Source: Cenarchaeum sp.
GTDB lineage: Archaea; Thermoproteota; Nitrososphaeria; Nitrososphaerales; Nitrosopumilaceae
Reading direction: 5' to 3'
DNA: 64,000 nucleotides
Assembly: GCA_963692915.1 (NCBI GenBank)
Contig: OY843584.1
Coordinates: 1,568,001-1,632,000, forward strand
Shown: positions 8,221-64,000 of the stretch, in pieces
Layout of the letters: every line of letters starts with the position of its first letter
How positions within the stretch are numbered: position 1 is the stretch's first letter
Position numbers and translations under genes: made by a program
Notes under the pieces: generated by a model
The model's database searches: none
What the model saw: the letters and a program-made list of their open reading frames with translations, nothing else
Told to the model about the DNA's origin: nothing

Positions 8221-9456
8221 TTACTGGTATGCAAGCAGTGCACATCTGCTGATTCTTGGCGCATTTACTTGAAAACCGTGCTCTGCCCATTCCCAGATCC
8301 CATTGTCCATTATCCGGTCTATAATCCAACTACGTGGTTCTCTTTTGGAGATTATTTGTGATATTGCCCCGATGACACGTTGCATACCGGGATTCTTGGG
8401 TGGACTCCACGTGGGCGGCCCAGTCTGATCAAATACATCAGGCATTTGCCTGCTTGGCTCTTTCACTGACAATGTCATGCCAAATTTACGGTTAGTTTTC
8501 GGCTCTGTGTCTGTTGCAACAAATTTATAATCGTCTACTATGCCCCATTTGTCCACATCGAACTCTCGCTCAACATTGATCCATTTGGAGCCCTCACGGA
8601 GAGACAATGCCGATTCTTGGTTTAGAAGTTTGATCTGGTTTTTTGGCATGTTGATATCGACCACTGCGGCCAACCATGGGATTCCGGGCATTGGCATTGG
8701 CTCGTGTGCAGATAACGCTGTATACTGTAAATTAGCGTGAGTGCGTCCATACACGTTATTTACAAGTCGTCTATATACCTCTAAATCACATACTGCGTGC
8801 GTCATGAAAATTCCGTCCATGTGGAAATTTTGATCCAACACGTCAATTATAGTTTTTGCTGCGTGTCCTCTTTCAAGATCCAGGTGTCCTTGGTAGTTGC
8901 CCATTCCAAATATGGCCTTGAACGCTGCATAACGACGGCTCTCATTGAGCCTATTTATCAACTCTTCACAACCGCATACATGTGGGCTAATTATGTCACT
9001 TATACGATCACTGTTTTTAACTGACACTCTGTGGCTAAATCTGTCGTGTTGTGGTGCAATCTGATCATATTGTTCTCCTCTGTGTAAGCTTGATGCCATT
9101 TTTGGAATGTATTCCTTTAACTGTTCTTCGTAACTCGATTTAAACAATCTTTCGACAGGCGAGCGCTCTCTATTTGACCAGGTACATGCCATGTTTGCTA
9201 GACGTATATAGTCTGTATATGTCTCATTATTTGGGTTTAGAGCATTCCACTCGCCATTGGTATTTTTGGGACGTTTTAGCGTCTCTTCATATATGTGATT
9301 CAAGGGTGGTTCAAACCGGATATTGTTGGGCGATCTATTCCAGTTATGTGTCGTCTGCCCACATTGACGGCCGGGATCTATGTTTGCCAACAACGTCATG
9401 TCTGTGCCATGGCCACCGTAGATCAGTCGATTGTCTACGACCCTGATCTCTGTCAT
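8221..9456 (-). CDS. HK97-fold major capsid/encapsulin-like protein (stand-alone)
   Basis: The 411-aa ORF and TATA (TTATAAAT at 9481) are solid. The fold call rests on a spine-helix-like segment and the pattern THAVC..PG..VVD..MP..I...AL.L.EG. Paralog starts at 63691. Confidence 0.55.
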   Translation of the reverse strand: MTEIRVVDNRLIYGGHGTDMTLLANIDPGRQCGQTTHNWNRSPNNIRFEPPLNHIYEETLKRPKNTNGEWNALNPNNETYTDYIRLANMACTWSNRERSPVERLFKSSYEEQLKEYIPKMASSLHRGEQYDQIAPQHDRFSHRVSVKNSDRISDIISPHVCGCEELINRLNESRRYAAFKAIFGMGNYQGHLDLERGHAAKTIIDVLDQNFHMDGIFMTHAVCDLEVYRRLVNNVYGRTHANLQYTALSAHEPMPMPGIPWLAAVVDINMPKNQIKLLNQESALSLREGSKWINVEREFDVDKWGIVDDYKFVATDTEPKTNRKFGMTLSVKEPSRQMPDVFDQTGPPTWSPPKNPGMQRVIGAISQIISKREPRSWIIDRIMDNGIWEWAEHGFQVNAPRISRCALLAYQ

Positions 9457-9505
9457 ACTGTGCGTTTGTCATGTTTTACTTTATAAATCTGATGACTCGA
9501 TCTAC

Positions 9506-9842
9506 GCATGAGATCAGCACCTGGATCGCAAGCATGGCTTTCTCGGCCATGCCCTTTCCCATGGCCTTCCACGTCGGGAATCACGTCAGGTGGGTTGACA
9601 TGCGTCTAGCAGTGGCAGCGCCACCCCTGATCTATTAGCTCACCTTGCGGCGAACAACTGCGCTGTGCAATGCCTCCCCGGCGACGTTGCTCATGGGCTT
9701 GACGTCATCATGTACAGAGCCTGAACGGCTGGAGAGGCATGGCAGGCCTGCCCGGCCACGTCGCATATTGACTTTCCATTCCGTCATTGTGGCGATCCTA
9801 CAGGCAATGCCGGGACGTCCTCTGCCGCACGTCGGCACATAC
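9506..9842 (-). mobile_element. IS66-family remnant (3' end of transposase plus TIR)
   Basis: TIR GCATGAGATCAGCACCT at 9506; minus strand reads ..DVKPMSNVAGEALHSAVVRRKVS, a decayed PTNNxAERxLRxxVxxRKxS IS66 motif. Confidence 0.7.
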
Positions 9843-9900
9843 TAGTGGACAGGCCAAGATCGGGTGATGACATATATAGTCAGAGCCGTCATTGCTCCGC

Positions 9901-10143
9901 ATGGGAAAAGGTAACAGAGGACATAGTGCTGCGAACAATCGTTCCAACTCTATGAACCCAAACAACCCAGCATACGCTGCTTCGCAGACAAATACTGCAA
10001 GTCAAATAGCGTCCTCGCGCGGACCCGGCGGCATAAAGGCGTCAAATAACGAAAGTGCGGATTCCCAGAATCCAAACAACGCCAAGCATGCGGCATCTGA
10101 GGCAAATCGTGCCCGGCAAATGTCAGAGAACAGCGAAGATTAG
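9901..10143 (+). CDS. small N/S-rich 'NPNN' repeat protein
   Basis: NNRSNSMNPNN..ADSQNPNN; close paralog at 24711-24953 including the CATATATAG promoter. Confidence 0.75.
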   Translation: MGKGNRGHSAANNRSNSMNPNNPAYAASQTNTASQIASSRGPGGIKASNNESADSQNPNNAKHAASEANRARQMSENSED

Positions 10144-10194
10144 AGTTTAGGCAAATATAGAAAGCTTCGTAGGTCGATCTGAGACGACCAACTA

Positions 10195-10208
10195 TTTTTT
10201 TATTTTTT
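10195..10208 (+). terminator. oligo-T archaeal terminator candidate
   Basis: TTTTTTTATTTTTT after the NPNN gene; equivalent T-tract at ~25002-25016 after the paralog. Confidence 0.45.
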
Positions 10209-10926
10209 CAAAGACTTGTCATTAAATGAGCCTAGCGCAGAGACTTGAATTGCCCTGTGACAGAAAACCGCCACTATCGACCCAGGTGGAGTGTCTGTGG
10301 CTGCCCCGTAAATTCTGCAAGATCGGCATACTGCGGCGTCTCTTGAGCACACTATCTGACACATGACGAGCTATGGCGTTATTCTGTCTGGCAGCTTTGT
10401 GCGTTATGGTACAGGGCAATGAGTGAAAGCTCGGTCATCTGCGTGTCTTGTCTGCACGATAGGGCGTGTCTGTGATCTGCTCCTTTGTCGAGATGAGGGT
10501 GTGCTCAATTACATTGCGTCTCTGGCACTCCACCGTAAAGAATCTACAGTCACCGTAGTATCAGCACAACATGTCACCCATAATGCCAAGATCATGAATG
10601 GCCGCTGGATCCTGACGTAATCCTTGACATATTGGAGTCTTGCCGGTGTGTCAGCACACACACCGGTGACACATTCTTTGCCTCAAAAGCGACATACTCT
10701 TCAGATCTGCCGTTCTCTGACCGTAACGATGTGAGCTCCACCCACCGCCCTAATCCACTCTGTCGCTGCTAGCATAGTATCTGCTAGTTCCTAGCATATG
10801 GAGCACTTCTTTCCAGTCCTTGCCGCTCCCATTCATTTGCATGGTTCAATCTTGTCCTCTGGTATGACCGGTGAACGCGCATAATGCGACATCCAGAGTT
10901 CTTGTGTTGAACACTGTCTCCTGGCT

Positions 10927-10982
10927 TGGGGAAGAGCGTGGTCGCGGAGGTCATGCGCGTGGTCTAGGTGTTGGCCTCACAC
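10927..10982 (+). mobile_element. IS66-derived end
   Basis: GGGGAAGAGCGTGGTCGCGGAGGTCATGCGCGTGGTCTAGGTGTTGGCCTCACAC closely matches 31646-31699. Confidence 0.75.
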
Positions 10983-11007
10983 GCCAATCAGCAGAAAAGA
11001 CCCATAT

Positions 11008-13675: not shown

Positions 13676-13716
13676 GCAACCACAAGGCATTCTCAAACCC
13701 AACTTACAGATATAAT

Positions 13717-17157: not shown

Positions 17158-18096
17158 ATGAAAAAGAAGTCAACTTCAAACGACCAGCGAGGCGGCGCAG
17201 CAACCTTGAACAGCGTGTTTCAGGCATCTGCGGAAAACCTCTCCACCGATCTGGATCTGTCCGCCTCAAAGTACAGGTCAGCTATTGCAAATTGCTCCGA
17301 TTTGATGAACCAGAACAACCCGGCACGCGTGTACTCTGAGGAAACTCGATCCAACATGGCGAGCCAGAAACGTAAGACACGCCAGAAATCTGGATTAGGC
17401 CAAACAACCACCGCCCGTCCCAAGTCCGGGGTACGCCGTAAAGGCAGCAGAACTTCTACACCGTCACTCAAGACGGCTAGGAATGCCACTGAGAGCCCGA
17501 GAGAGAGTAGCGTGCACAGGCATGTGTTACCATCTGAGGGTGGCCTCGATGGCGGGCACGGCATTAGTGATTATGATGATGACGAGTTGTCAATTAAGCC
17601 CGCCGTAGAAACTGACACTTTTACCGACGTGCAAGATGTGAACAAAGAATTTGTTGTCGAAAAAAACCACGTGAGCGAAAGCTCACAATTATTTCCATCA
17701 ACCATGGTCGGCATAAAGTCGGCAATATGTGAGAATGGCCATGTTCTTGACAGTGCTGTCCGTGTAGAAAAAAAATATGATGATTTCTGTAACCAATGTG
17801 GTGCTAGTGTCTTTACAGAGTGCAAAGAATGTGGTTCGCCAATTAACGAAGAACGCATTAACTATATCACGTATGCTGCACTCATTCCGACTCACAAGAC
17901 ACCGCCTTACCATTGCTCCAAATGTGGCAAGTCTTTTCCATGGGACGGTGATATGCGTCGCGTTACGAAAAACACGTCAGTTATTCAGTTTGTCAAAAAA
18001 CACCCCACGCGAGTTTTTGTTGGTGTGGCTGCGGCTGCTGGATTCATAGTTAGCCTTCTGGCTAACGCTGCCCAGCTGCTTACTTTTTTCTCCTGA
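17158..18096 (+). CDS. DUF2321-like multi-Zn-ribbon protein with NPNN-like leader and C-terminal TM
   Basis: ICENGH..FCNQCGA..ECKECGSPI..HCSKCGKSFPW; hydrophobic tail; TATA CTTAAAT at ~17117. Confidence 0.75.
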   Translation: MKKKSTSNDQRGGAATLNSVFQASAENLSTDLDLSASKYRSAIANCSDLMNQNNPARVYSEETRSNMASQKRKTRQKSGLGQTTTARPKSGVRRKGSRTSTPSLKTARNATESPRESSVHRHVLPSEGGLDGGHGISDYDDDELSIKPAVETDTFTDVQDVNKEFVVEKNHVSESSQLFPSTMVGIKSAICENGHVLDSAVRVEKKYDDFCNQCGASVFTECKECGSPINEERINYITYAALIPTHKTPPYHCSKCGKSFPWDGDMRRVTKNTSVIQFVKKHPTRVFVGVAAAAGFIVSLLANAAQLLTFFS

Positions 18097-20863: not shown

Positions 20864-22333
20864 TTATGTGCACAAAAATCGTGCACTGACCCATGGGCGC
20901 TTTGTGTATATTTTGCTAAAAATCTCCTCCATGGCAAAATCTTTAAAACAATAATTTAGCACATCGCTTTGGGACACGTGTATTCCGAGCGACTCTAGCG
21001 TGTTCTGCATGTTGGGATTAGGATCAATCACGCACAGTTTATTGTTGTCCGCGGCAATCTTGATACAATCTAGCAGTTGGTTATTGGCCACATCGCTAAA
21101 ACTATAGCCTGCAACGATAACAAGATCTGCACTTGTAATGTCACGTTGAAACTGCAGGAATATATCTTTGTGTGCGGGATTTTTTTTAATGCCATAATAA
21201 ATAAGAAGTTTATGATCCAGCGTGGCAATGGGATGTTTTAGAAATTTTGAACGTAATGTTTTACGAACATTCCTAGATGAACTGCGCCAACTCTGAACAA
21301 AATCTTTGATTTCTTTGAGCTTCTTGGAATCGATAAAAGTTTCTCCCTTTTTTAACGACCAGTTGACGCTGCCATGGAGTTTAAGCAGGAGAAATTGTTC
21401 ATTGTTTGTGTGTCCATGGTCAAATCCACAATAACATCCATTAATAAATCCATCATAATATGTACAGTTATGCATTTGTGCAAATGATTCGATAACAAGA
21501 TCATAGTTTGTTGTTGCAATGGTCAATGATATATTTTTCCTATCCAAATGCCAGAAAAAATTTTCGTAATTCAATAGTGGCGGTATGCCATGCTCAGACC
21601 ATGAACGGGGATTGAATACTAGACAACGAGAATAGACAAATCTCTCAATCAGCTGACGCACTGCGCCAATTGTTAAATATAAACAGCACATATCTGCAGA
21701 ATGCTCAAGAAAGCAACTTTTGGCATGCATCACTCTAGCATCTTGCGGATGGTGCGTTGAGTGCCGTGTGATCATTCGGCTCGTAAAAGCTTGCATGTCT
21801 TTTTTTCTAGACGCAGGAGTGACACTGTTCAATATTTTATGGATGTTATCTATGCAGGCACTGTAAGATCGGGTGATAGACTTGCACAACTCTGTCCGGT
21901 CAGGGTCTTTCAGCTTGGCACTAGAGTCTTTTATGCAGAGCCCGTGCTGATGTTCCCTGACCACGTCCTGCAGTTTATCTAGTGTCATAAAGAGATCTTC
22001 GATTGTCTGATTGCCATGATCAAAACACAGTATGCCCAATAGATTGTTGATGGTTATAATATGTTCGTGATCATGCTCACATAATTTTACACCATGAGAA
22101 AATTCCTTAATTTGCGTGTCATCGAGGCACATTTCTTGGAGCTTATCGACAAATCCACTGCTTGTTGGAACTAGAGGCGAGGAAACGCCGGCTCCGACAA
22201 ACAACACTACTCGTTTTTTTGCTGGCGCGGGGGCTTTGACACCATTCTGACCCGTTCCGGACTCTCTGCACGCCTCGCTGTTTGGGTCTACTGTGTCGCC
22301 TCGCTCGTCGTTTGGAGTTGGCCTCTTTTTCAT
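20864..22333 (-). CDS. SIR2-like (SIR2_2) NADase-domain protein
   Basis: VLFVGAGVS, TTNYDLVIE, LLKLHGSVNW, GYSFSD. Confidence 0.9.
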   Translation of the reverse strand: MKKRPTPNDERGDTVDPNSEACRESGTGQNGVKAPAPAKKRVVLFVGAGVSSPLVPTSSGFVDKLQEMCLDDTQIKEFSHGVKLCEHDHEHIITINNLLGILCFDHGNQTIEDLFMTLDKLQDVVREHQHGLCIKDSSAKLKDPDRTELCKSITRSYSACIDNIHKILNSVTPASRKKDMQAFTSRMITRHSTHHPQDARVMHAKSCFLEHSADMCCLYLTIGAVRQLIERFVYSRCLVFNPRSWSEHGIPPLLNYENFFWHLDRKNISLTIATTNYDLVIESFAQMHNCTYYDGFINGCYCGFDHGHTNNEQFLLLKLHGSVNWSLKKGETFIDSKKLKEIKDFVQSWRSSSRNVRKTLRSKFLKHPIATLDHKLLIYYGIKKNPAHKDIFLQFQRDITSADLVIVAGYSFSDVANNQLLDCIKIAADNNKLCVIDPNPNMQNTLESLGIHVSQSDVLNYCFKDFAMEEIFSKIYTKRPWVSARFLCT

Positions 22334-22399: not shown

Positions 22400-22734
22400 T
22401 GTTTTATACGGAAAGGGGCACTACCCGTTCGTGTCTTTCCCCGTCCACCACGGGTTCCCGGCCCTGACCCTCCCGTCGGCCCTCCGCCTCCTGAAGGCCA
22501 GCAGGGGCGTCTCTCCGGTCTCCACATCGAGGGCAAAGTGGAGCCTCTCCTCGCTGTGGAGCCCGATGAACTCGGCGACCCCGCCAAAGTGGCCGATCTC
22601 CGCCTCGAGCGTCTGGAAGAGCCTCCCGGCCTTGCCGTTGGTCTGGAGGGTGCCGGACCCGCCGGCCTTCCGGGGGCTCGGGATCTGCGCCCGGCAAGCC
22701 GTCTTGCCCCCGCTCCTACTTTTCGTACAAGGCA
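22400..22734 (-). mobile_element. internally deleted (non-autonomous) IS481 derivative, 335 bp
   Basis: Both ends match the IS481 at 54556-55647; retains only the QTNGKA.RLFQTLE..EERLHFALD C-terminus. Confidence 0.85.
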
Positions 22735-22819
22735 CCGGCGGGGGTCGCATCAATCTCAGAGTTGATGCCCCGCCTCATTCTCACTAAACATTTAACCCCC
22801 CCGCACCCCAATCCCCGCC

Positions 22820-43262: not shown

Positions 43263-43390
43263 CATATTCTGTCCTGTCAGATACACGATGATTGAGGCAT
43301 ATTGGCTGGTCTTGAGACTGTTTTTCTGCTGCGTTTCATTACGTTTTGCCAATAGTTAAAATATGCCCTTTCCACGTCCTGCGTCATTCA

Positions 43391-44389
43391 ATGACGTCAC
43401 TGTCGACCCATTTTGAAAACCAGTTCATCTCTGACTTGAAGCAGGCACAAACTATTGCCAGATCTGATCAATCTGGCTATGCGCTTGGAACCGCAATGTA
43501 TCTTGGGCAGCAGTCAGTCGAAAAGCAGCTAAAGTCCATAGTCCTCAAGCTGGACGAACTGTTGGAGTTGGGGCAAAGCAAGAATATACTGAGTTCTCTT
43601 AGCCATCAGCTATACCCAAATATCTATAAACTGCTTTATGTCAAGCACATTGCTAGTGTGGCCGCGCCCTATTTTACGAATGATGGAATGGTCAGGCCAA
43701 ATTCAGAGCAATCGGACCACAGCGATCGTCTTTTTGAAACAATAAGCAAACAGTGGGAAGACTATTCAAGAAACCCTAACTGGAAATTGCTGGACTGGCG
43801 AATTTCAATGGGGGTTCCTCTTGACCAAAAGGAACTCTCCGAGCTCAACCTGCACCATCACACCTATCTAAAAAATCTTCAAGAAAGTATGGGAACGAAT
43901 CCACCACTTCAGACCCTTACTAATGATATGTTCACAGCCCCCAATATGCAGAAAGTGATTCATGATGATGACCAACTTCAAAAACTCTTTACTAAATATG
44001 TGCAACATCCATCAAATATTAAACGGCAAAATCTATTTTCTGCCTATGCTGACAGCGTCGAAAACATTTTTTCGTCTGGGTCAAAAACATCTGACTATTC
44101 TTCCTCACAATCATCTGCCAAATTTAGCCGTCGACTTTTATTAGATTTTAGTTATAATATTGTTGTAGGATTTGCTAACTATTATCTGTTCTTGTTTCCC
44201 CATGAATCACTTGGGCGTTATCCGGCAATTTTAAATGATGGACGCGTTACAACTGACATGTATGGGGAATATTCTGACTATCCGCTATACTGGGTGTTTA
44301 TTTATCTACGTTATGAGCTAGAGTATCTACGCACTAATTCTACATGGATTGATCGTCTCTGGAATCAAATTCAACAATTTGTAGACTAG
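43391..44389 (+). CDS. HEPN-domain protein with large insertion
   Basis: AMYLGQQSVEKQLKS..SHQLY....GRYP. Confidence 0.8.
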   Translation: MTSLSTHFENQFISDLKQAQTIARSDQSGYALGTAMYLGQQSVEKQLKSIVLKLDELLELGQSKNILSSLSHQLYPNIYKLLYVKHIASVAAPYFTNDGMVRPNSEQSDHSDRLFETISKQWEDYSRNPNWKLLDWRISMGVPLDQKELSELNLHHHTYLKNLQESMGTNPPLQTLTNDMFTAPNMQKVIHDDDQLQKLFTKYVQHPSNIKRQNLFSAYADSVENIFSSGSKTSDYSSSQSSAKFSRRLLLDFSYNIVVGFANYYLFLFPHESLGRYPAILNDGRVTTDMYGEYSDYPLYWVFIYLRYELEYLRTNSTWIDRLWNQIQQFVD

Positions 44390-44642: not shown

Positions 44643-45998
44643 TCACTCGCCCTTGCCATTTGCCGTGTACGGCGTTCCCAACGCCCTCATGACCATCTCC
44701 TCTATGGTTGGCTGGATTGGCGATGTGGCCTCTGGATTCCTGACTAGGGCGCACCTGTAATGGCGACCCAGGTCCCTGGCGACTAGCACGCCGCCAAGCC
44801 TCCTATTGCCCCTGATCCTTTTTGCCAGCTCGCCCTGAAACTTGTCATCTGTGACATAGTTGTGCGGATCCTCGACTATCAGCAGCGACTGCCGTGTCCC
44901 AAAGTGCCTTATCTGGCTCTTGGAGAGCGCCTTGCGGAGCAGCCCCCTGCGCGAGTTTGTGGGAAATATGTGCCCAAACTCCATGGCCACCACGTCACGT
45001 GGCGCATATGCCTCGATGTAACAGTCATGGACCCGCAGGTCGGCGCGTCTGCCGTCATCGATGGCCGGCTCTAGCTCGATCTCCCCTGTAACGGCGCAGA
45101 GATGGACATAGAGGCGCATCTCAAAGGCATACTGCAGGAACTTCCACTCGCGCAGACCCCCCCGCCAGGAGGCATACTTGGCCGAGTCGTGAATCGGCAT
45201 ATTGTGCGCCCACATGAACGCGATCATCGACTCTAGGCCGTCGAGCGCATTGGGTCGCGAGCCTGCGAGTTTCGGCAACTCGAGTGCCATGGACGCATAA
45301 TAGACAAGGTCCACCCTTCTCTTCACCAACTCTGTGATCTTTTCGGGGCAGAGCGCCAAAAACTCGTACATGCGCGGATAGCTTGCCTTGAGCCAAGGTT
45401 CAATCGTCTCGGTCGGCTCTAGCTGCCGACGCGCAAAGATGTTGCGTGATATCTCTGATATCCTGTAAAATTCGTCGTCTTCGCCATGGCGCATGTCAAT
45501 GTCCAGCCCTAGCATGTCTGCCCTCCTCTTGAGCAGCCCTAGGAGACCGGGCGCTAGGCCCTTGTGGGCCTTGGGATCCTCGCCGTTGATGATTCTATAG
45601 GTGGTGCGGTTGATCAGGTACTCTACGAGGATACCCCGCATCACCGTTTGCCTATCGTCTCCCTCAAGGTTGAGGAGGTCGTTGCACACCTCGTATATCT
45701 CGCCATACTCGTCGCGCTGCATGTATACCCTGTCGATGATGGCCATTGCGATACCGTCATTTGCGTGGCCTGTTCGAATCATGTCCACGATGCCGGCACG
45801 AAGGGCCGACGTTACGCGGTTTTTGCCGCCAATGTAGAGGTTTAGCGAGTCTATGCTCTGCCATGCGTCCGTTGGGTCGCCGTCATGGCTGCTCCTAACC
45901 TCGTCGCATATGTGCTGCAGCTTTGTGAGTATGACCTTGTCGTGGGCGCTAGGGGTCGTCTGATTCGGGGATACTGCGGGATCCGGCTCGGATTTCAT
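44643..45998 (-). CDS. helical N-domain plus C-terminal PD-(D/E)xK-like nuclease
   Basis: Paralog of 27985-29319; RRADLRVHDCYIEAY. Confidence 0.75.
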   Translation of the reverse strand: MKSEPDPAVSPNQTTPSAHDKVILTKLQHICDEVRSSHDGDPTDAWQSIDSLNLYIGGKNRVTSALRAGIVDMIRTGHANDGIAMAIIDRVYMQRDEYGEIYEVCNDLLNLEGDDRQTVMRGILVEYLINRTTYRIINGEDPKAHKGLAPGLLGLLKRRADMLGLDIDMRHGEDDEFYRISEISRNIFARRQLEPTETIEPWLKASYPRMYEFLALCPEKITELVKRRVDLVYYASMALELPKLAGSRPNALDGLESMIAFMWAHNMPIHDSAKYASWRGGLREWKFLQYAFEMRLYVHLCAVTGEIELEPAIDDGRRADLRVHDCYIEAYAPRDVVAMEFGHIFPTNSRRGLLRKALSKSQIRHFGTRQSLLIVEDPHNYVTDDKFQGELAKRIRGNRRLGGVLVARDLGRHYRCALVRNPEATSPIQPTIEEMVMRALGTPYTANGKGE

Positions 45999-46209
45999 GC
46001 GCACGGTGACCAGGGCGGCTCATATTGAACCTTGCAGTGGGGGGACGGCCTTTGGGCGCGGTTTGGCACTCAATGGCCGCTTTGCTGCGAGATCTCGCGT
46101 TTGCCCCCCAGCCGTTCATGGCGTGCCGAACCCTGTCATCGGAGCCTCGGGGCTGTCTGGTGTTGCCTGGTTTGCCGTGCCAGAAAAAAAATATGGTGTG
46201 GAGAATCAG

Positions 46210-46566: not shown

Positions 46567-47583
46567 ATGCCGATGACCCTCGTCGAGCTGGCCCAATATT
46601 TTGCAGAGCACGCAGCCTCTGACCTAAGGCAGGCTCAGGACATAGCCACATTCGACCAGTCAGGCCACGCGCTTGCCACAGCAATGTACCTCGCTCAGCA
46701 GTCGACTGAAAAGCAGCTAAAGTCCATCATCATCAACATGGACGAAAAGATGGAGCTGGGCAATAGTAGATCAATTCCCAGGTTGCTTGGGCACCAGCTC
46801 TACTCTGGCCTGTACGAATTTTACGGCAAGCAGATTGCCGGCCTTGACATCCCGCCTATGGAAAATAGCTATATACGATATAACAGCCAACACGCCAAAA
46901 ATGTGGTTCTCCTAAAGGATTTCTTTGGCAAGATGGGCAAGTTTTGGACCACTCATTCAACGAACCCACGACTGCAATCGATGTTTTGGCTCCAGTCCCT
47001 GGGCATAAAACTACAAGGTGCTGATGTGGCGCTGCTACACTTAACACACGCTCAATATGTGGACAGCATGCTTGATCTTGTCACCACAACTGGCACCAAG
47101 GTCCCGCCCATGCCCAAAAATGACTATGTGCGGCGACCCATGCCTGATGCCATCATGGACGATGCGCTACTTGCCTCGTATCGTGGCAGGTACGCGCGTG
47201 CCGAGTTCAACACCATTGATCGCTACAGGCTGGGCACGGCCTTTGAGCAATTCAGGGCCTTTCTCTCGCTGTTTCCAAACCCTGTGCCGGCCCCGTTTCA
47301 TGCAGATGGCGCCGTGGCCAAAAACATCGCCTTTAGCTTTGGCCTCCTGACACTGGTCTTTGAGCAGTACCAATACCTGATTCTGCTCCCCAACAACAGC
47401 TATGGGCGCTATCCCAAAAGGCTTGAGGACGGGCGAATCACGACTGACGTGTATGCGTCACAGGCCGATACCGTGATGCACTGCCTGCTTGTCGACGTTC
47501 CGTACCGACTCGGCCAGCTGCGTGCCAACTCTGGGAGGTTGGACGTGCTGCTTGACATGGGGCGCGAGCGCGGATGCTGGTAG
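46567..47583 (+). CDS. HEPN-domain protein with large insertion
   Basis: AMYLAQQSTEKQLKS..GHQLY....YGRYP. Confidence 0.8.
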   Translation: MPMTLVELAQYFAEHAASDLRQAQDIATFDQSGHALATAMYLAQQSTEKQLKSIIINMDEKMELGNSRSIPRLLGHQLYSGLYEFYGKQIAGLDIPPMENSYIRYNSQHAKNVVLLKDFFGKMGKFWTTHSTNPRLQSMFWLQSLGIKLQGADVALLHLTHAQYVDSMLDLVTTTGTKVPPMPKNDYVRRPMPDAIMDDALLASYRGRYARAEFNTIDRYRLGTAFEQFRAFLSLFPNPVPAPFHADGAVAKNIAFSFGLLTLVFEQYQYLILLPNNSYGRYPKRLEDGRITTDVYASQADTVMHCLLVDVPYRLGQLRANSGRLDVLLDMGRERGCW

Positions 47584-53185: not shown

Positions 53186-53962
53186 TCAGCTGTGACCCCT
53201 GCCGCATCTTCTTTCTATGTAATTGGCCATTGCCGCACACCACACGAGCACGATCTGCGCGTCGTTGATATCAACCGTGTACCCCGGCTCCGCTGCGGCG
53301 TGGCGCGCACCGCTCTTGTTGCTAAAGTCGTACATCTTTTTGAACGCATCCTTTACCTTTGGGTGCAATCCGGCCCTTGAGTCTATGTCCTCTAGAATCC
53401 CTGACAGGCCGGTTTTCTTGCTATATCTTTTGGCCACGGCTTCTATCATCTTTATTGATTCGACAATCGAGGCCTCATAGTCCGGATTGGTCGGATTAAT
53501 GTGCCTGATGGCCTTTTCTGCGTGCAATTTCGCCTGCTCTGAGATGGTGCTGGCCTGATGCAGTGCGTCGATGCTCTCTTCGCCAATCACGGGCTCCATC
53601 TGACCTTCCACCATCTTCCACCCTGAATCGTTTTCAAGCAAAATCTCATTTAGTGCATCCTCAAACTTTTGCCTATCCCATTCTGCCATTTGCCCCCACA
53701 TCAACTCTAGCAGATCATAAACTTTGTTAAATTCTGCCTCATTGTATGCTTCGTACAACTCTTCGATTGAATAGCTCCACCTACTATATTCGCCACGTCT
53801 GCGCTTTTGCCAATATACCCACACTACCTCTCTTGGCAACATGCCCGCTTGATTACAATCGTCAACTATGTCCCATATGCGCCTCTTTAGATCATCGTCC
53901 ATGGACTCGAACTGCAGCCCCTTTATCGGCTCATAGCCGTACCGTTTTGAAAAACTGCTCAT
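53186..53962 (-). CDS. AbiJ N-terminal-domain protein with HEPN-like C-terminus
   Basis: FSKRYGY....LQFESMDDDL..RIW, F..VYDLLE, C-terminal GARHA. Confidence 0.75.
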   Translation of the reverse strand: MSSFSKRYGYEPIKGLQFESMDDDLKRRIWDIVDDCNQAGMLPREVVWVYWQKRRRGEYSRWSYSIEELYEAYNEAEFNKVYDLLELMWGQMAEWDRQKFEDALNEILLENDSGWKMVEGQMEPVIGEESIDALHQASTISEQAKLHAEKAIRHINPTNPDYEASIVESIKMIEAVAKRYSKKTGLSGILEDIDSRAGLHPKVKDAFKKMYDFSNKSGARHAAAEPGYTVDINDAQIVLVWCAAMANYIERRCGRGHS

Positions 53963-54555
53963 GCGGATCCGCTTGGCTTGGCATTCTCTATTAATGTGTT
54001 ATGTGAACGTTCATCGTATAATCATGTGCCGATCTTCGCGATCAGCTAGACGGTGAGTAGTAGAGATCCGGATGTGCCTCTGGTAGCTGTGGCACTGGAT
54101 TGGGAGCTCTGACAGGCTCGTCGTATGCCGTCTAGGTAGGTCACTGAAAATTGCGGTATAGATATCATGCCCGATAATTGCTCTGACAAGTTTGAACATT
54201 TAAAATTATGTGATTTTGTTGGCAATGCCGAAATATGGACAAGGGGTCGCCGAGCGGTATGAATGAAAAGCTGTGCTAACCGAGCAAATGAGCCAATATG
54301 ATGGATGCTGCCACAGCCTCAAGGCAAAGGCTAGAGATCAGAACCCATTGCCCACAATGTGTATAACGACCTATTCTAAAATTAAATTTTGTGAGGCTGT
54401 GGATGCTCACTAGGTATCTAGAGTGCAGATACTGGTAAAGTTGGGGCGTAGTCAACCCAATAAAATTATTCAACATATTATTGTCTACATCAGATATTCC
54501 CCCACGATCAACCATGAAATTCGAACCAGCCAGAAAGTGTAGATCTTTGGCGATC

Positions 54556-55647
54556 TGTATTGTACAAAAAGTAGGAGCGGGGGCCAGAGGGCTTGCCGGG
54601 CGCGGATCCGGGAGCCCGCGGAGGGCCTTCGGGTCCGGCAGGCTGCCGAAACACACGTTTGGGGGCCTCCGGCGCCGGCGCGCCATGCCGGTCAGGAGGC
54701 TGGACGCGCGGGCGCTCCGGTACATCGCGAGGACGCTTGCGACCAGGAGCACCGGGGCAGTGGCGCGCGAGCTGGGGATCTCGCCGTCGTGGGCCCGCAA
54801 GCTCCGCGCGCACTGCCGGCGGACCGGCGCGCCGCCGGAGCCGCGGCCGATGGGGAGGCCGCGCAGGCCGATCACGCGGGAGCAGGCCGACGAGGTCCTC
54901 GCCGCGCACTCGCGCGACCCCGTCGGCGTGGTGCGCCTGGTCAGGCTCATGCGGCTCAACAACTCAAAAATAGCGTACGGCGCGGCGTACCGCATATTGT
55001 CTGCGGAGGGACTGGTCAGCAGCTCGCCGGCGAGGTCGAGGAGGCGCAAGTGGGTCCGGTTCGAGAGAAAGTACTCCAACGCGATGTGGCACGTGGACTG
55101 GCACATAATGAAATACGGTCCCCTGAGGGGCTCGCACCTCATAGTGTTCCTCGACGACGCGTCGCGGTGCGTCACGGGGTTTGGCGTCTTTCCCGAGGCC
55201 ACGTCGGGCAACACGGTGATGGCGCTGCGCCACGCGATCGGGCGGTTCGGCGCGCCGGCGCAGGTGCTCTCGGACCACGGGACGCAGTTCACGGCGACCA
55301 GGCGCGGCACGCCGCGCCGCAGCTGGACGCCGACGCTCTTCGAGCGGGAGCTGCTCGACGCCGGCATATCGCACGTCATGGCGCGCGTCGGCCACCCCCA
55401 GACCAACGGCAAGGTCGAGAGGTTCTTCCGGACGCTCGAGACGGAGATCGGCCGCCATGGCGGGGTCGCCGAGTTCATCGGGCACTACAACGAGGAGAGG
55501 CTCCACTTCTCCCTCGACATGGAGACCGGCGAGACGCCCCTGCTGGCCTTCAGGAGGCGGAGGGCCGACGAGCAGGTCCGGGCGGAGAACCCCGGGTGGA
55601 TGGAGGTGGACTCGGATGGGTAGCGCTCCTACTTTCCGTATAATACA
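54556..55647 (+). mobile_element. complete IS481-family insertion sequence (1092 bp)
   Basis: TGT...ACA ends, 24-bp TIRs matching 21/24 (TGTATTGTACAAAAAGTAGGAGCG), much higher GC than the flanks; no clear TSD. Confidence 0.92.
54685..55623 (+). CDS. IS481-family DDE transposase (rve integrase core)
   Basis: HTH, WHVDW, LSDHGTQF, PQTNGKVERFFRT. Confidence 0.92.
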   Translation: MPVRRLDARALRYIARTLATRSTGAVARELGISPSWARKLRAHCRRTGAPPEPRPMGRPRRPITREQADEVLAAHSRDPVGVVRLVRLMRLNNSKIAYGAAYRILSAEGLVSSSPARSRRRKWVRFERKYSNAMWHVDWHIMKYGPLRGSHLIVFLDDASRCVTGFGVFPEATSGNTVMALRHAIGRFGAPAQVLSDHGTQFTATRRGTPRRSWTPTLFERELLDAGISHVMARVGHPQTNGKVERFFRTLETEIGRHGGVAEFIGHYNEERLHFSLDMETGETPLLAFRRRRADEQVRAENPGWMEVDSDG

Positions 55648-55656
55648 CTAGAACCG

Positions 55657-56549: not shown

Positions 56550-57497
56550 CTATGCTGTCATTGCGATGCTGGCCTTGAACCCGTATGGTTTTGCCCTGCC
56601 CGCATTGGTTGGCGGGCTCACGACGCTGCAATAGCGACCCACTGTAAACTCGTCATCCGTGCACGTGATCGTGGTCGGACCCGTGATGAACAGTGGGCCA
56701 TACATGTGTGACGTGACGTATGCGACGTTCTCAGGGATGCGCTCGTGGCCTATTATGCGCACGCCCATGTGGTCGATCACATTATCGGCTATTATTGCTG
56801 ACATTTCTGGAATGCCTTCTGAGATCAGCGAGTTGAATACAGCGTGATTTATGAACACAGTGTCCAATTCCATACCTCCCTGCTCGTCGTTCATCTTTCG
56901 CACAAAACCCCATAGGTGAGTTAGAGTTTGCGATCCGCCATACTTGAATGTGGCTTTGAAGGGATACAGCTGATCCAAAGCCTCAAGGCAGGCATTGTTT
57001 TCACATGACCATATCGGCCACATCATTCCCTCCACAAAAGTCTCAACATCAAACTGGTCAAATCCGTCACGCGGAACTGAAAAGCGCACAGGGGTCATCT
57101 TTGGCATGTGTGCATATGAGCGCGTTGACGGTTCTCCTCGGACGTGACTGTCCTGCGTCAGGAACGGCACTGTGCCCTGCACTATGCCCTCGCTTTTGGT
57201 CATGCGGAATCCGAACGCTAATTGTCCGATTTTTGGAGATCCGGCGGGTGCGAATGTCGGCCATGCGGGATCCTGCGGTATCTCCCTTGAGATATCCTTG
57301 CTCCCCCCGGCACGGATCATGGTGTAATAGTCGCCTGTATAATCCGCCGAGTTGGAGGAGGGCACAATGCCACGAAACTCGCCTCCCGGCAATATTGTGA
57401 GCAACATGCCCTGGCGCAGGAGCATTTCGCGAGCGTTATAGAGATGTTTCAGCACCGAGGGCAGCACGTTGTGGTTGCCTTTGCCATAATATTCCAT
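56550..57497 (-). CDS. HK97-fold major capsid/encapsulin-like protein (stand-alone)
   Basis: Spine-helix-like ETFVEGMMWPIWSCENNACLEAL; LDTVFINH, GVRII..ERIPENVAYV, GP..ITGP; TATA at ~57525. Confidence 0.55.
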   Translation of the reverse strand: MEYYGKGNHNVLPSVLKHLYNAREMLLRQGMLLTILPGGEFRGIVPSSNSADYTGDYYTMIRAGGSKDISREIPQDPAWPTFAPAGSPKIGQLAFGFRMTKSEGIVQGTVPFLTQDSHVRGEPSTRSYAHMPKMTPVRFSVPRDGFDQFDVETFVEGMMWPIWSCENNACLEALDQLYPFKATFKYGGSQTLTHLWGFVRKMNDEQGGMELDTVFINHAVFNSLISEGIPEMSAIIADNVIDHMGVRIIGHERIPENVAYVTSHMYGPLFITGPTTITCTDDEFTVGRYCSVVSPPTNAGRAKPYGFKASIAMTA

Positions 57498-57771
57498 GCG
57501 CACGGCCTGGCATGAAGGGGAGCGATATAAGCCTAGCAGAAAACCCAGAAAACGTCTCCGGGATGGGTGGTTTCGGGATACATTTGCCGTAGTTTGGATA
57601 TTGCGCTACACGGGCAACAGGCACCCGGAGTCCTGTGGTAGCCACATATCCGGCCATTTTGCTCATATTTGGCCAATTGGGTGGCAAAGGCGTATATCCG
57701 GGACTCTTGTCTGCCTCTCCGTGTTTCCCGTAAATGGGGTTAGCCCGAGCTGGAAAGATCACGGTAATCTA

Positions 57772-58665
57772 ATGACTACTTCCCTTAAACAAAATGGCGT
57801 ATTCCACTGGGGCGACATTAGAACTGTGCTTGGCGAGTCTACGTATACAAAAATGCAGCGATTGAGGAACAATCGTATTTGGCTCGTCGACCATGCTGAT
57901 GTGAGTCCAGGATCGAGAAACTCTGTGCTCGATTATGCCAGTGTCGCCAACGCCGAGCTGTACAATTATTTGACCAATCAGCACCTTACCTTTGCTCGGC
58001 CATTATTAAGTGATGCCCAATCACGCCAGACTCCGGGTAATCCAACATGCAATATGGTGGCTTTGGAAACTAAGGACTATGAACTAGAACACTATGTTGA
58101 TCGAACGACACTAAACTCAGTCCATGACAATTTTATGGTTGACATATTAGTGTCATTTTATGACGCGATTGCCCTACAGGCAGAATCTGCCGTTCACAAT
58201 ATAGTTGCCAAAATGAACGAAGAAAACTTTGCTGATGTGGTGTCCATGAAACAAAACAGTGAGATAATGAAGATTGCCGAAGAAGATCCTCTAGACGCTA
58301 ACAAGATTGCCGATGCTGCTAGCGCCATAATCAGGCGCAATCCTGACGTTCCATATCCTCAGGGTTTGGTGTGCATGGTGTCTCCTGCGCAGGCCATGCA
58401 GCTATTTGACGAGTCAGCGGTACGCGCCGATCATCTGAACGTTTATGGAATTGATACAATCGTCAGCCCTGCAGTGGGATTTAACCGTGATTATCACAAG
58501 TATGAAGCCATAGTGACTCCAAAAAAGTCCATCTTGGTGGCGTTAAGCCTGCTGGAAATTGACGCAGTGCCGGATGGATCAGGAACGCACATTAGGGCAC
58601 AATATGCCCTAGGAGTCACAATTGACCCGTCAAAGGCAGTAAAGATCATATCGTGGAGAGAATAA
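57772..58665 (+). CDS. HK97-fold major capsid/encapsulin-like protein (stand-alone)
   Basis: PTCNMVALETKDY..YVDR, DILVSFYDAIALQAESAV, LVCMVSPAQAMQL, GIDTIVSPAV, IRAQYALGVTIDPSKAVKI follow a typical coat-protein motif order. Confidence 0.65.
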   Translation: MTTSLKQNGVFHWGDIRTVLGESTYTKMQRLRNNRIWLVDHADVSPGSRNSVLDYASVANAELYNYLTNQHLTFARPLLSDAQSRQTPGNPTCNMVALETKDYELEHYVDRTTLNSVHDNFMVDILVSFYDAIALQAESAVHNIVAKMNEENFADVVSMKQNSEIMKIAEEDPLDANKIADAASAIIRRNPDVPYPQGLVCMVSPAQAMQLFDESAVRADHLNVYGIDTIVSPAVGFNRDYHKYEAIVTPKKSILVALSLLEIDAVPDGSGTHIRAQYALGVTIDPSKAVKIISWRE

Positions 58666-58666
58666 C

Positions 58667-59848
58667 GTGGATTCTGCTAAGGCTTCTGATAATGCTGATA
58701 ACATTGATCCTGCACAGAACCTCAAGTGTAAAAATTGTCCTGCATGGCTTCGGATGATATTTGAGCAATACCTCAGTCGCGCGGGGGACATAGTGGTGAA
58801 TAGCAAGCTTCCCATTCTTGAATGTCCGTCATGCCATAACATCGTAATACCTTCATACACAAAAAAAGCAGCTCAAAACGCCGAGTTATGTGACAGTGGT
58901 GAATATGCGCCTACCATTGAGAACTTGAGGTTTGACTTCTGCCCAAACATCGAATTTGTGTATTCAAGCATTGATTGGGAGGTAATTCCAGGTTTAAAGC
59001 AGTCAGAATATGGGATTGATGGATACTATGTGCCGGTATTTTTTAAAAAACACGTGCTGCTAAAATATGTGATTCTTGAGTATCCTATGGAGTATTTCAA
59101 GGATGGTGGCAGCATACACTTTTCCAACGGACACGATCTTGAATATGGCATAAATCGAAATGGCCTACTTTTCTGTTGGCTTGGTGATCTAGACAAGATT
59201 CCTGTAGCCGAGCAGCACTATATGTTCTCAGAAAATGTCGAGTCTGACCATGATGTGGTATCTGGCTTGTACATGAAATCTCGTCTAAACCTGACACCTG
59301 GAGCGACGAATGAGCAACTGTTAGATCGTTCGATGACTCGCCTCAACAAGACGATGCAGTCTAAATTCCATTTCAAGCTGCATGCTCTCAATCCGGTAGA
59401 GATACAACTTTTGGAAAAATTAGCCAAGCCGGTTGTTTGGAATGACTATGTCGCTGTTACAATTATTGGGGTTATGAAAGTGCACATTGAATCTCTCGAT
59501 GAAGATATGCTTAACTCTGATCTTAGGAGTTTAGACAAACATGCCAAAAAATTAAAGTGTTTACAGCTTATGGATGCATGGCTTCAATCCAAGATTACTG
59601 AAAATATTTCAAATATAATAAAACCATTCAAGATTCTTATTGTGTGGCGAAACATATTTGCTCATAAATCCAAACTAAAAACTAAAAAAACGCTGTATTG
59701 GTGCAACGTTGAGATGGGACTATCGGGGGATGCTAAACCAGAAGTGTTATACGATACTATAATTGAAAAGATGGTAGAGTCATATGACCATATCGAACAT
59801 GCTCTGGCGGAGTATGAATTTGAGACTCCCATAATTTTTGTCAAATAG
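58667..59848 (+). CDS. Zn-finger protein with C-terminal HEPN-like motif
   Basis: CKNC..CPSC; WRNIFAH (Rx4H) in the helical C-terminus; starts 1 nt after the capsid-like gene. Confidence 0.7.
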   Translation: MDSAKASDNADNIDPAQNLKCKNCPAWLRMIFEQYLSRAGDIVVNSKLPILECPSCHNIVIPSYTKKAAQNAELCDSGEYAPTIENLRFDFCPNIEFVYSSIDWEVIPGLKQSEYGIDGYYVPVFFKKHVLLKYVILEYPMEYFKDGGSIHFSNGHDLEYGINRNGLLFCWLGDLDKIPVAEQHYMFSENVESDHDVVSGLYMKSRLNLTPGATNEQLLDRSMTRLNKTMQSKFHFKLHALNPVEIQLLEKLAKPVVWNDYVAVTIIGVMKVHIESLDEDMLNSDLRSLDKHAKKLKCLQLMDAWLQSKITENISNIIKPFKILIVWRNIFAHKSKLKTKKTLYWCNVEMGLSGDAKPEVLYDTIIEKMVESYDHIEHALAEYEFETPIIFVK

Positions 59849-59899
59849 GATTATCTTGTGCTCTGATATGCCTGTGCTATTTCACACGTGGGGCTCAAC

Positions 59900-60160
59900 A
59901 TCGCACCCCAAAGTGCCTTATCTGCCTCTTGGAGAGCGCTTTACGGAGAAGGCCGCTGCGCGAATTTGTGTGAAATATGTGCTCAAACTCTATGGCCACC
60001 ATCTCTCGCGGCGCATATGCCTCGATGTGGCAGTCGCAGACTCGCAGGTCTGCCATCTTGCCCTTATCAATGGCCGGCTCTGGCTCTACCTCTTTTACGA
60101 GTGCGCAGAGATGGACATAGAGGCGCATCTCAAAGACATATTGTAGGAACTTACAGTTGC
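59900..60160 (-). pseudogene. internal fragment of the 27985/44643 nuclease family
   Basis: KFLQYVFEMRLYVHL..ADLRV..HIEAYAPR..LLRKALSK.QIRHFG. Confidence 0.8.
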
Positions 60161-61725
60161 GCAATTCACCTGATTCTAATGTGCTAAAATTTATTGATGG
60201 CCAGCAGCGCGTGACAACTGTTGCCCTGTTTCTCATATGCGCCCGCAATTTTTTCTATGAGCGACGAAATGACTCGTTGCTTGCCTCTAGGCACTATAAG
60301 ACTCTCCAAACGTACCTTTACAGATCCACTGACACAAAAAATCGCCGAACGTCTGATCACCTGCTCACACTAAGCCGTCCCAACAGAGAACTGTTCCAAA
60401 TTTTGATTGACAACCCTGCCGTCCAAAAAGAGACGGTTCAGCAGCACGCCGATCAAAATTCTCCAAACATGCGTCTTGTGGAAGCCTACCTCTATTTGAC
60501 ACGCTGGCTTAATTCTAAAGCTTCTTCCAAAGCTTCTTCCAAAGCTTCTTCCAAAGCTGACGAAATCAAAGAAGTCTATGCATTGGTTCGAACCCTTCTC
60601 ACAAAATTCAGTGTCTATAAAAATGAGTCTGCTGATCGTAAACTTGCACAGCGAATTTTCAAGCTGGTAAACCATCGAGGCCGCAAGCTAGACATGTCTG
60701 ATCTTGTAAAAAACTATCTGTTTGACGAGTTGGACAGCAATGCTGAAAAGATAAACATCGACGCCTATGATGACCAATGGGGCGATATTGTCAATAATGT
60801 GACAAACGAAATGACCGGAGTCAAGATGGACCACTTTTTGCACCATTATCTAATCGTGTCTGCCGGCTATAATTCGATCCCCATTAAATCAAATCACAAG
60901 CGCATGTATTTTACATTCGAAAAACTCGTGGAACGCCAGCTCCAAACCCCCAAAGCCATAATTGGCGAGTTGCGCAACTGGTCTGAAATACTTGAAATTG
61001 TCCGTAATCCCGCACATCCCGACCACTTTCCCAAACACCCAAACATCGCCTATTATCTTGCGCGCCTGAAATCCCTGAGCGTCACTCCGGCGTATCCGGC
61101 AATCCTGCTCGGCTATACCGAATACTGGAAAAAGCGTCAAACGCGGCTATTTGAGGCGCTCCTGATGCTGTGCTTCAAGTATCATATCAGGGTTCAGCTG
61201 GTCACCAAGATGAGCCCCAGTGTGTACGGGCGCACGATGAGTGACATTGCCGATGACATACACCGTGGAAAAGACCTGGACCAGATTATTGTGGATCTGA
61301 TGAACACCAACCAAAAATATCCAAACCGCAACATCATACGAGACATGCTAAAAGACAGGACTCTCAACTCTCGCGCCCCTGCCATTGCCATGTTGGAGGA
61401 GGCAGAATACCCTTCGGCCTCCACCCTGCGCCCGATGGAGGAGCCATCCCTTGAGCACATAATGCCCCGGATCCTAGACAAGGACTGGCACAGCCATGTC
61501 ATACAGCACAATGGCATTGACCCCACCAACCCTGCCCGCTCTGATGACGCGGTGAACAATTACCACCGTCGGCATGTTGACTATATGGGCAACCAGACGC
61601 TCCTGCTGCCAGGGGAGAATGGCTCACTCTCCAACAAGTCATACGACAAGAAAAGGCTAGTTTACGGAAAACAGCACGTTCAGGATAACGGGCACGCTGC
61701 CCCGCTTTACAGTCTGGGATCATGA
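60157..61725 (+). pseudogene. 5'-truncated GmrSD-like (DUF262 + DUF1524/HNH) type IV restriction gene
   Basis: Begins at IDGQQR, so the N-terminal DUF262 part is missing; N.RG..L, EHIMP, GNQTLL..N..LSNK; C-terminus looks frameshifted; contains a 12-bp x3 SKAS slippage. Confidence 0.7.
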
Positions 61726-62043
61726 AAGCATTATGAGCAGGCAGAAAAGACTTGCGTCAAGGATCACCTCATCCATAGACCTGGGCACGGTTATTGACCA
61801 TATACGGTCATAGGTGGCCCATTACACGGGTCTGTTTTTGTGGGAGTGCGCGCACTTGGCGATCGTTGCCTGTTTGCAGGTGCCTTTCTGGCATTGTGCG
61901 GACTCTGCTACATGGGGCGCTCTGAGATCCCTGGGATTGAACAACGCGTCCATCTGCTGTTCTAGAGGCTGCGCCCGAGGCGGCTATTTTGGTGAAATGT
62001 TCTGGCCTCCGGGGACGCCTGCCCTAACTGACCTGTATTGGTT

Positions 62044-63093: not shown

Positions 63094-63213
63094 CTTGCTC
63101 CATCTTGCGACTGTTTGATATTAACTATCCCTGTTCGGTAGTCGCTCATGCGCCTAACCGGAGCCTGCCGAAGACGGTCTTTGAGGCACGCGCACCAGTT
63201 TGACGCGATTCCG

Positions 63214-63261
63214 GTCGTGGCCAAGGAGCTCATATGTACGATCTAGTCGCTGACCCCATAT
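63214..63261 (+). mobile_element. degenerate IS66-derived end
   Basis: CGTGGCCAAGGAGCTCATATGTACGATCTAGTCGCTGACCCCATAT resembles the reverse complement of the 26571 end. Confidence 0.6.
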
Positions 63262-63380
63262 ACCATCAGGCGTCTGTCTCAACTAGCGTCATCACGCACG
63301 AGTCCCATATTGGCGTGTTGGTGCTGTGATCGGCCAACCGTGGGGAACCCCTAGTGTTCAATATGGGCAATAATTGCAGG

Positions 63381-63542
63381 CTATCGGCGAAGCCCTTCGC
63401 GCAGGATCGCAAGCCCCACCATCCAGGCAATGTCAGTCCAAGTCACGCTCCCCGGACCGTGCTGGATCACCTTGGCCCCAAGCATGATAGTCGAGCCGAT
63501 AGCCGCACCATCCACAATGTCGCGCGCGTCGTCCTTGTTCAC
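63381..63542 (-). CDS. 53-aa hydrophobic microprotein, copy 3
   Basis: (M)NKDDARDIVDGAAIGSTIMLGAKVIQHGPGSVTWTDIAWMVGLAILREGLRR; CCTTAAATTC promoter identical to copy 1. Confidence 0.75.
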   Translation of the reverse strand: MNKDDARDIVDGAAIGSTIMLGAKVIQHGPGSVTWTDIAWMVGLAILREGLRR

Positions 63543-63587
63543 GTGCAGCGTATGGTAAGGACAGAATTTAAGGGTTTTATAGGATGC

Positions 63588-63604
63588 GTATGGGGTCAGT
63601 ACCC
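63588..63604 (+). mobile_element. solo IS66-type TIR
   Basis: GTATGGGGTCAGTACCC. Confidence 0.6.
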
Positions 63605-63690
63605 GTGCCAGATCAAGGGGGGGGGGGGGGGCCGGCTCAGGCGACTGAGAGGATCGTCAAGTTAATAAATAACGTAGTAAAAGGAGGCGT

Positions 63691-64000
63691 GTGGCCTGGA
63701 TTAGAGTCGTAGGCAGTAGGTGGGTCTATGTTGAAAGTAGTGTCAAAGATACGACACTGTTGGCAGACATGGATCCCGACTGGCAAGATGGGCAGAAAGC
63801 ATATGGCCAGAACCGGTTGCCCAGAGGCATCCGATTTGAGCCACCACTACAGCGCACACATGATGAAACCATAAAACGTCCCAGAGATGCCCAAGGCACA
63901 TGGAATGCGGCAAATCCAAATAATGAGAGAACGGCGGATCAGCTATATCTAGCAAACATGGCATACGCCTTGTCAAAATATGGGGAGAGGTCGCCTGTAG
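63691..64000 (+). CDS. 5' part of a paralog of the capsid-like gene 8221-9456 (runs off the window)
   Basis: Translated by hand: MAWIRVVGSRWVY..DTTLLADMDP..IRFEPPL..ETIKRP....WNAANPNNE..LANMA...ERSPV; TAATAAATA upstream. Confidence 0.75.
   Translation, partial: MAWIRVVGSRWVYVESSVKDTTLLADMDPDWQDGQKAYGQNRLPRGIRFEPPLQRTHDETIKRPRDAQGTWNAANPNNERTADQLYLANMAYALSKYGERSPV

Follow-up and report, generated by a model that had tools for sequence, protein, structure and literature searches.

What are genes that resemble virus capsid genes doing among the defence genes of an archaeon? This question is raised by a stretch of 64,000 nucleotides, hereafter the window, which covers positions 1568001-1632000 of the single-contig genome (1,644,826 bp, guanine-plus-cytosine (GC) content 59.4%) of Cenarchaeum, a sponge-associated ammonia-oxidising archaeon. 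A sequence-only reading of this DNA had flagged five open reading frames (ORFs) as relatives of HK97-type capsid proteins and encapsulins, and had proposed that they are domesticated virus genes kept as mobile single-gene cassettes among defence genes. All five ORFs are present. They form three families, which we call A (genes A1 and A2), B (B1 and B2) and C. For B1 and B2 we put the probability at roughly 55% that they are exapted stand-alone capsid shell genes of thaumarchaeal head-tailed viruses that act in virus-host conflict. The capsid-like character proposed for all five genes thus survives for family B, whereas for families A and C it was unsupported in every test.

Relationship of family B to viral capsid proteins

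Searching 1.84 billion representative proteins exhaustively with HMMER and the B profile gave 22 matches, 16 of them at E <=1e-30. The best 14 full-length library matches span 285-323 residues, and one metagenomic homologue bears the name 'Thaumarchaeota archaeon S15'. Family B was found in 2 of 401 genomes of the same taxonomic family and is, as far as searched, restricted to Cenarchaeum plus a small number of metagenomic relatives, including one labelled a thaumarchaeon. The weakest significant match of the B profile was P0029, a protein of 709 residues from a Nitrososphaerales metagenome-assembled genome (E 2e-4 in the library of 1.84e9 proteins). An 18-row B profile aligned to P0029 with 52.7 bits over profile positions 41-259 (219 positions). 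P0029 itself matches phrog_544, phrog_334 and phrog_283 (6.2e-10, 3e-4 and 6e-4, respectively), each of which is annotated as 'major head protein', and its N-terminal part has no family match in Pfam or PHROG. Similar fusion proteins of 574-763 residues were found in 7 of the 301 genomes sampled from the class, and in genome G029 a Terminase_6N gene lies 11.4 kb from the P0029-like gene on the same strand. A search of genome contigs for P0029 relatives found none. Designer PPR repeats appeared as relatives of P0029 in a PDB profile search and were taken as spurious, the match running via a 27-residue stretch only.

Comparison of the B profile with a profile of seven P0029-like fusions using hhalign gave a probability of 97.2% and an E-value of 3.2e-11 over 304 columns, with B 8-313 aligned on fusion 371-716. 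Since these boundaries take in all of B, the whole protein corresponds to the C-terminal capsid domain of the fusions, the N-terminal ca. 370 residues being gone. The same clean domain boundary was common to every B member. As an independent lead, in the ESM Atlas a B homologue that is 41% identical to B2 (P0013) was nearest to Phage_capsid_4 and Phage_capsid clusters (0.96-0.97). Judged by these profile alignments, B is homologous to the HK97-type major capsid protein of thaumarchaeal head-tailed viruses.

B1 and B2 share 25% identity over 287 residues (E 4e-31), as expected for the paralog pair proposed earlier. Their starts at 38767 and 57772 are ATG codons inside longer reading frames, and the family alignment and homologues favour these starts. 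The public gene call for B2 (P0005) has only 176 residues, corresponding to the C-terminal 59%; homologues favour 297 residues. In contigs of four sequencing runs, which come from four studies, C and B2 are unchanged.

Virus and encapsulin genes in the window and the genome

The B genes are stand-alone, with no morphogenesis genes nearby or genome-wide. The sequence-only reading had recognised no morphogenesis or integrase gene in 64 kb; this was borne out by a Pfam scan, which detected no virion family in 40 further ORFs of the window, and it extends to the whole genome. The families searched genome-wide were Phage_capsid, Phage_capsid_4, encapsulin, TerL_ATPase, Phage_portal, Phage_integrase and Terminase_6N. 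In 1.64 Mb nothing was found for PF03354, PF04860, PF00589, PF05065, PF25209 or PF04454, and for Terminase_6N (PF03237) the only match had 18.5 bits, below the cut-off, and lay at 844 kb, far from the island. The encapsulin family PF04454 was found neither in the five proteins at E-values up to 1 nor in the genome at E-values up to 10. The large terminase together with an integrase by which a head-tailed provirus would be recognised was not found in the genome above the cut-off. A morphogenesis module around B was found neither among the 40 window ORFs nor in the whole genome, nor in the surroundings of a solo B copy in G001. G001 is the nearest relative among the searched genomes, also a Cenarchaeum, and served as the reference for island comparisons.

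Distribution, context and evolution of family B

The presence of B differs between the two Cenarchaeum genomes. B1 has an orthologue in G001 that is 90.7% identical at the protein level, and the nucleotide block 37597-38967 matches G001 at 91.6%. For B2 there was no nucleotide match in the G001 island. G001 carries its solo copy, the third B copy, on a 2.1 kb segment that has a rhodanese/metallo-beta-lactamase gene on one side and an amidohydrolase gene on the other; this segment is missing from an otherwise 93-97% identical stretch of the genome that contains the window. A tRNA-Ala(CGC) gene of G001 (L020 9661-9735) is located 66 bp from the edge of the segment, which is on the 5' side of the tRNA. 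A search for direct repeats flanking the cassette gave none that was convincing, the best being 71% over 24 nt. The solo copy has a host-like GC content and is surrounded by housekeeping genes. In two metagenomic cases two B homologues occur on one contig, P0015 with P0016 on 23.7 kb and P0020 with P0021 on 17.7 kb; the contigs of the homologues P0017, P0019 and P0022 measure 22.4, 15.2 and 24.7 kb, respectively. Being stand-alone and variable in presence, family B agrees with the earlier picture of domesticated capsid genes carried as mobile cassettes, which for A and C is unproven.

The neighbours of B1 and B2 gave no Pfam match, and no neighbour gene is conserved between B copies. The gene that follows B2 is probably co-transcribed with it because its start is one base past the B2 stop; it has no counterpart beside B1 or the G001 copies. 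The GC content of B2 is 45.9%, and that of B2, A1, A2 and the gene after B2 is about 40-46%, compared to 53-58% for B1 and C and 59.4% for the genome. A phylogenetic tree of 17 B rows, with P0010 and P0011 left out as near-duplicates, placed B2 in a metagenomic clade (support 99/98), apart from B1 and the two G001 copies (87/84).

The ratio of nonsynonymous to synonymous substitution rates (dN/dS) was 0.71 between the B1 orthologues and 0.52 between those of A2; the deep paralog pairs B1/G001-solo and A1/A2 gave 0.53. The values of 0.52-0.71 for the A and B pairs compare with 0.07-0.19 for five clear core genes in the flank, for which probable shadow ORFs were left uncounted. Pairs of C genes gave 0.23-0.68. 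All four Cenarchaeum B copies are intact, as are the copies of A and C. The B ORFs have remained intact at 25-40% identity, and their reading frames are kept in pairs with dS near or above 1.

Families A and C

A1 and A2 are also paralogs, as the sequence-only reading had held, with 51% identity over the 103 residues in the window and 43% over 418 residues. The full A2 gene reaches genome position 1632947 and encodes ca. 420 residues. About 60 nt upstream of the A2 start there is a run of ca. 15 G (window 63600-63625), which may be either a tract prone to slippage or an error of assembly; one X5-run contig has one additional G at 63616. The C gene had been given as 56550-57497 and described as a singleton. 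The ORF exists, its start being a GTG at 57503 with the ATG at 57497 two codons in, and C is single within the window only, with three further copies elsewhere in the Cenarchaeum genome. BLAST found no similarity of C to A or B, and profile-profile comparison among the three families detected no relation. Family A was found in 2 of 61 genomes searched and family C in 4 of 151, all of the same genus, and in 2 of 301 in the class sample. A word-index search gave one outside homologue for each of families A, B and C.

None of the five proteins had a Pfam match at E-values up to 1. Their only PHROG matches were two non-significant ones to families of unknown function (E 0.36 and 0.17). A tblastn search of 50,697 phage records gave nothing for A and C and one chance-level match for B2. 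Clear TATA boxes had been claimed for four of the five genes. A regular-expression search, run without a chance control, did not bear this out: plausible boxes about 27-33 nt upstream were found for three (A1 TTTATAAA, C TTATAT, A2 TTAATAAATAA), the box of B1 is weak and B2 has none.

The assignment of A and C to the HK97 fold comes purely from a motif pattern seen by eye, which does not establish either family as capsid-like. Both do carry the order of motifs described in the sequence-only reading. By eye, A, B and C share a long amphipathic helix followed by a 'D-x-hydrophobic-x-x-P/H ... L' segment, and further on a 'G-hydrophobic-x-hydrophobic-hydrophobic-x-S' strand followed by terminal strands. 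Against the thaumarchaeal capsid profile, the test that gave an E-value of 3.2e-11 for B gave P 0.17 for C and P 0.30 for A. Of the 13 C members, not one matched a head-protein PHROG, and PDB profile searches with C and A found nothing. These negative results are weak because bona fide thaumarchaeal capsids behave similarly: with shallow profiles of seven thaumarchaeal Phage_capsid_4 proteins, the true capsids mostly failed to detect each other. The best non-significant C alignments are co-linear with capsid A-domains (P 0.017), and C adjoins B in two genomes, with a different B paralog each time. Families A and C may then also be HK97-fold capsid derivatives that have diverged past sequence detection, which we consider a tentative and rather doubtful proposal in view of the hhalign values, the missing relation among A, B and C, and the lack of Pfam, PDB, head-protein and phage matches.

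The C genes have a second recurrent neighbour. B and C are divergent neighbours, C standing beside B2 in the window and beside the B1 orthologue in G001, and outside the island every C gene has an E-family gene (ca. 340 residues) immediately downstream in the same orientation, an order that also occurs in G001. The loci are L048 10052-13525 (G000 1123-1126 kb), L049 8459-10680 (G000 615-617 kb) and L021 4159-8226 (G001). C and E form a conserved two-gene cassette. Matches of the E family to HEPN (PF05168) were below the cut-off in three of six proteins scanned.

Gene content of the island

The mean GC content of the window is ca. 50%, compared to 59.4% for the genome. Over the 10 kb upstream of the window, identity to G001 is 93%. 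The window corresponds to the end of the G001 chromosome only in the form of a shuffled mosaic of blocks (68-98% identity), and we therefore regard it as a variable island. No tRNA gene was found inside the 64-kb window. The defence cassettes reported earlier are indeed nearby: PADLOC recognised four defence genes in the window, namely SIR2, Old/GajA, PDC-S32 and GmrSD (Table 1). A Pfam scan identified TPR proteins in eight window ORFs, and several multi-copy families besides A, B and C make up the island.

Table 1. Positions of the genes discussed, counted from the first nucleotide of the window
Feature	Position	Strand	Remarks
A1, orphan family A, 411 residues	8221-9456	-	ORF present
A2, 5' part of second family A gene, 103 residues in window	63691-64000	+	open at window end
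B1, putative stand-alone capsid shell domain gene, 311 residues	37832-38767	-	longest ORF 37832-38851, 339 residues
B2, putative stand-alone HK97-type capsid shell domain gene, 297 residues	57772-58665	+	longest ORF 57496-58665, 389 residues
C, Cenarchaeum-restricted orphan family, 317 residues, GTG start	56550-57503	-	divergent to B2
Gene after B2, 393 residues, Cys-pair N-terminus	58667-59848	+	no family match; GC 39.8%
E3, E-family gene	46567-47583	+	one of three E genes in window (others 32137-32991, 43346-44389)
SIR2-type defence gene	20864-22333	-	Pfam SIR2_2 2e-8; PADLOC SIR2 1.2e-15
Old / GajA-like ATPase-TOPRIM defence gene	39994-42018	-	PADLOC Old 7e-54; Pfam scan
AbiJ N-terminal domain / PDC-S32 candidate defence gene	53186-53962	-	Pfam 2.3e-22; PADLOC 3.9e-50
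GmrSD / HEC-06 type IV restriction-like gene	60157-61725	+	Pfam scan; PADLOC 1.9e-43
F1 gene	4114-5316	-	member of F-TPR-A three-gene unit
TPR protein gene, 885 residues	5522-8179	+	member of F-TPR-A three-gene unit

A three-gene unit composed of an F-family gene, a gene for an 885-residue TPR protein and an A-family gene (F-TPR-A) is present twice in inverted orientation and brackets ca. 54 kb of the island. One copy covers window 3769-9409, and the other starts at window 61275, continues through 64000 and runs on to genome position 1637716. Identity to G001 amounts to 98% for the copy at the window end and to 81% for the other; A2 lies in a match to G001 of 98% nucleotide identity over 8.4 kb.

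Some further observations concern the rest of the island. The D family (ca. 450 residues, no family match) has full copies at 27985-29319 and 44643-46004, three copies in G001, and a 117-residue fragment at 59895-60248, between the gene after B2 and GmrSD. Window 22404-22753 and 54481-55643 show 72-89% translated identity over ca. 53-74 residues, within ORFs that are probably non-coding shadows, and this likeness suggests a short repeated DNA segment in the island. A DUF2321/double zinc ribbon protein and a DUF3800 protein (window 17158-18096 and 29972-30715) are encoded among the defence genes and have no PADLOC match.

Interpretation of the B genes

The reading of B1 and B2 as exapted capsid genes takes up the following features. 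In the viral relatives the shell domain forms the C-terminal half of a fusion protein of 574-763 residues, of which B lacks the N-terminal ca. 370 residues. Family B is retained as intact ORFs of ca. 300 residues that evolve several-fold faster than core genes, and it is gained or lost as small cassettes; here it is located in an island of low GC content that also holds defence and TPR genes. We place B in a context of conflict because of its four PADLOC neighbours, the low GC content of B2, and B2 being nearer to metagenomic homologues than to B1. From these features we infer a role for B in virus-host conflict. The most plausible form of such a role would be that B joins the capsid protein of an infecting tailed virus during assembly and ruins the forming shell; alternatively, B may serve as a capsid-like bait.

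Several points weigh against this. The HK97 fold of B is predicted solely from homology. B1 and B2 are among the proteins without a Pfam match, none of six metagenomic full-length B members matched a Pfam capsid family, and none of nine B members matched a head-protein PHROG. PDB profile searches with B and with B plus P0029 gave no relevant match, the one obtained for B being at chance level (E 0.84). In IMG/VR the patterns used found no B homologue and so no present-day target virus; the pattern scan had no match for A or P0029 either, and two metagenome scans had no match. The suggested defence role is an argument of guilt by association, the island being equally rich in TPR proteins. Such proteins are typical of sponge symbionts. 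Finally, the dN/dS of 0.71 between B1 orthologues derives from ca. 48 differences and is not clearly below 1, and the B1 copy could be drifting.

Drift of this kind, the loss of every other virus gene and the strong rearrangement of the island between species would all suit B genes that are functionless leftovers of decayed proviruses. We find this improbable, since all four Cenarchaeum copies are intact, the 14 full-length library matches fall in one length range, frames persist in pairs whose dS approaches or exceeds 1, each B member has the identical clean domain boundary, and one copy with host-like GC content sits amid housekeeping genes. The B genes might instead belong to a small mobile element or virus satellite that has escaped recognition and brings its own capsid gene, taking the remaining parts from a helper virus. 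The low-GC block of B2 that G001 lacks, the closeness of B2 to homologues from other organisms, the G001 cassette next to a tRNA-Ala gene and the contigs with two B homologues would fit such an element. Its existence seems unlikely with no integrase anywhere in the genome, no replication or packaging gene recognised beside any B copy, no convincing flanking repeat, and a cassette that sits on the 5' side of the tRNA.

A shell protein encoded by a stand-alone gene could also form a compartment. As a bare shell domain without protease or scaffold part, B resembles encapsulins as these are described in the available text of PMC8987985, and it could build a scaffold-less, self-assembling HK97 shell around a cargo protein, for which the tightly linked gene after B2 would be a candidate. 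We give this little credence: PF04454 is unmatched, no B neighbour has a domain of a known encapsulin cargo type, the candidate cargo gene is not conserved at B1 or the G001 copies, and fast evolution, varying copy number and low GC content are unlike a housekeeping compartment. A more elaborate idea, and quite an unlikely one, is that the shell domain protein B works together with C and the HEPN-like E as an immune module of capsid origin that only sponge-symbiont Thaumarchaeota have; the lone shell protein would mix with or mimic the capsid protein of an invading virus, and this event would be coupled to an RNase-type effector. It is suggested by the B/C neighbourhood in two genomes with different B paralogs, by C being followed by E at three loci, and by the families being multi-copy, lineage-restricted, and located in a defence island or having relatives there.

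Comparison with known systems

If B acts as an exapted capsid gene that interferes with assembly, a functional parallel would be the Tai systems, which the accessible part of PMC11364771 describes as bacterial defence that blocks tail assembly. In both cases a host- or element-encoded protein would block a step of virion assembly, and the genes occur in defence islands and mobile elements. Unlike B, Tai acts on tails in bacteria and, in that part of the source, involves no capsid homologue. The likeness is limited to the proposed mechanism.

With respect to descent, the nearest known proteins would be the Nvie-Pro1-type capsid proteins of thaumarchaeal head-tailed proviruses; in Nvie-Pro1 itself, according to the available text of PMC6563490, a protease is fused to the capsid protein. 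The architecture of P0029 and its six relatives fits this fusion. Over its entire length B can be aligned to their C-terminal capsid domain, and the hosts belong to the same phylum. B differs from them by lacking the ca. 370 N-terminal residues and a terminase or portal gene nearby or genome-wide, and it is only ca. 17% identical to P0029. The portion of the same mobile-element survey that was available makes no mention of such genes in Cenarchaeum, and a literature search listed zero occurrences of 'capsid' for three comparative genomic studies of sponge Thaumarchaeota (PMC9289680, PMC6697440 and PMC7848895). The viruses that infect sponge-symbiont ammonia oxidisers are difficult to study, and a lone shell gene such as B offers a way to approach them.

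Encapsulins are divided into families 1-4. In the available part of PMC8987985 they are presented as stand-alone HK97-fold shell genes thought to be domesticated from viruses. Like them, B is a stand-alone gene for a putative scaffold-less HK97-type shell protein of ca. 300 residues. Unlike them, B has no PF04454 match and no recognisable cargo gene, and it is multi-copy, fast-evolving and located on a defence island. Until now, HK97-fold genes that stand alone have been known mainly in the form of encapsulins. Family B would add a second kind, of separate origin from an archaeal virus, fast-evolving and present in several copies among defence genes, and would be a new case of a virus shell protein taken over by a cell.

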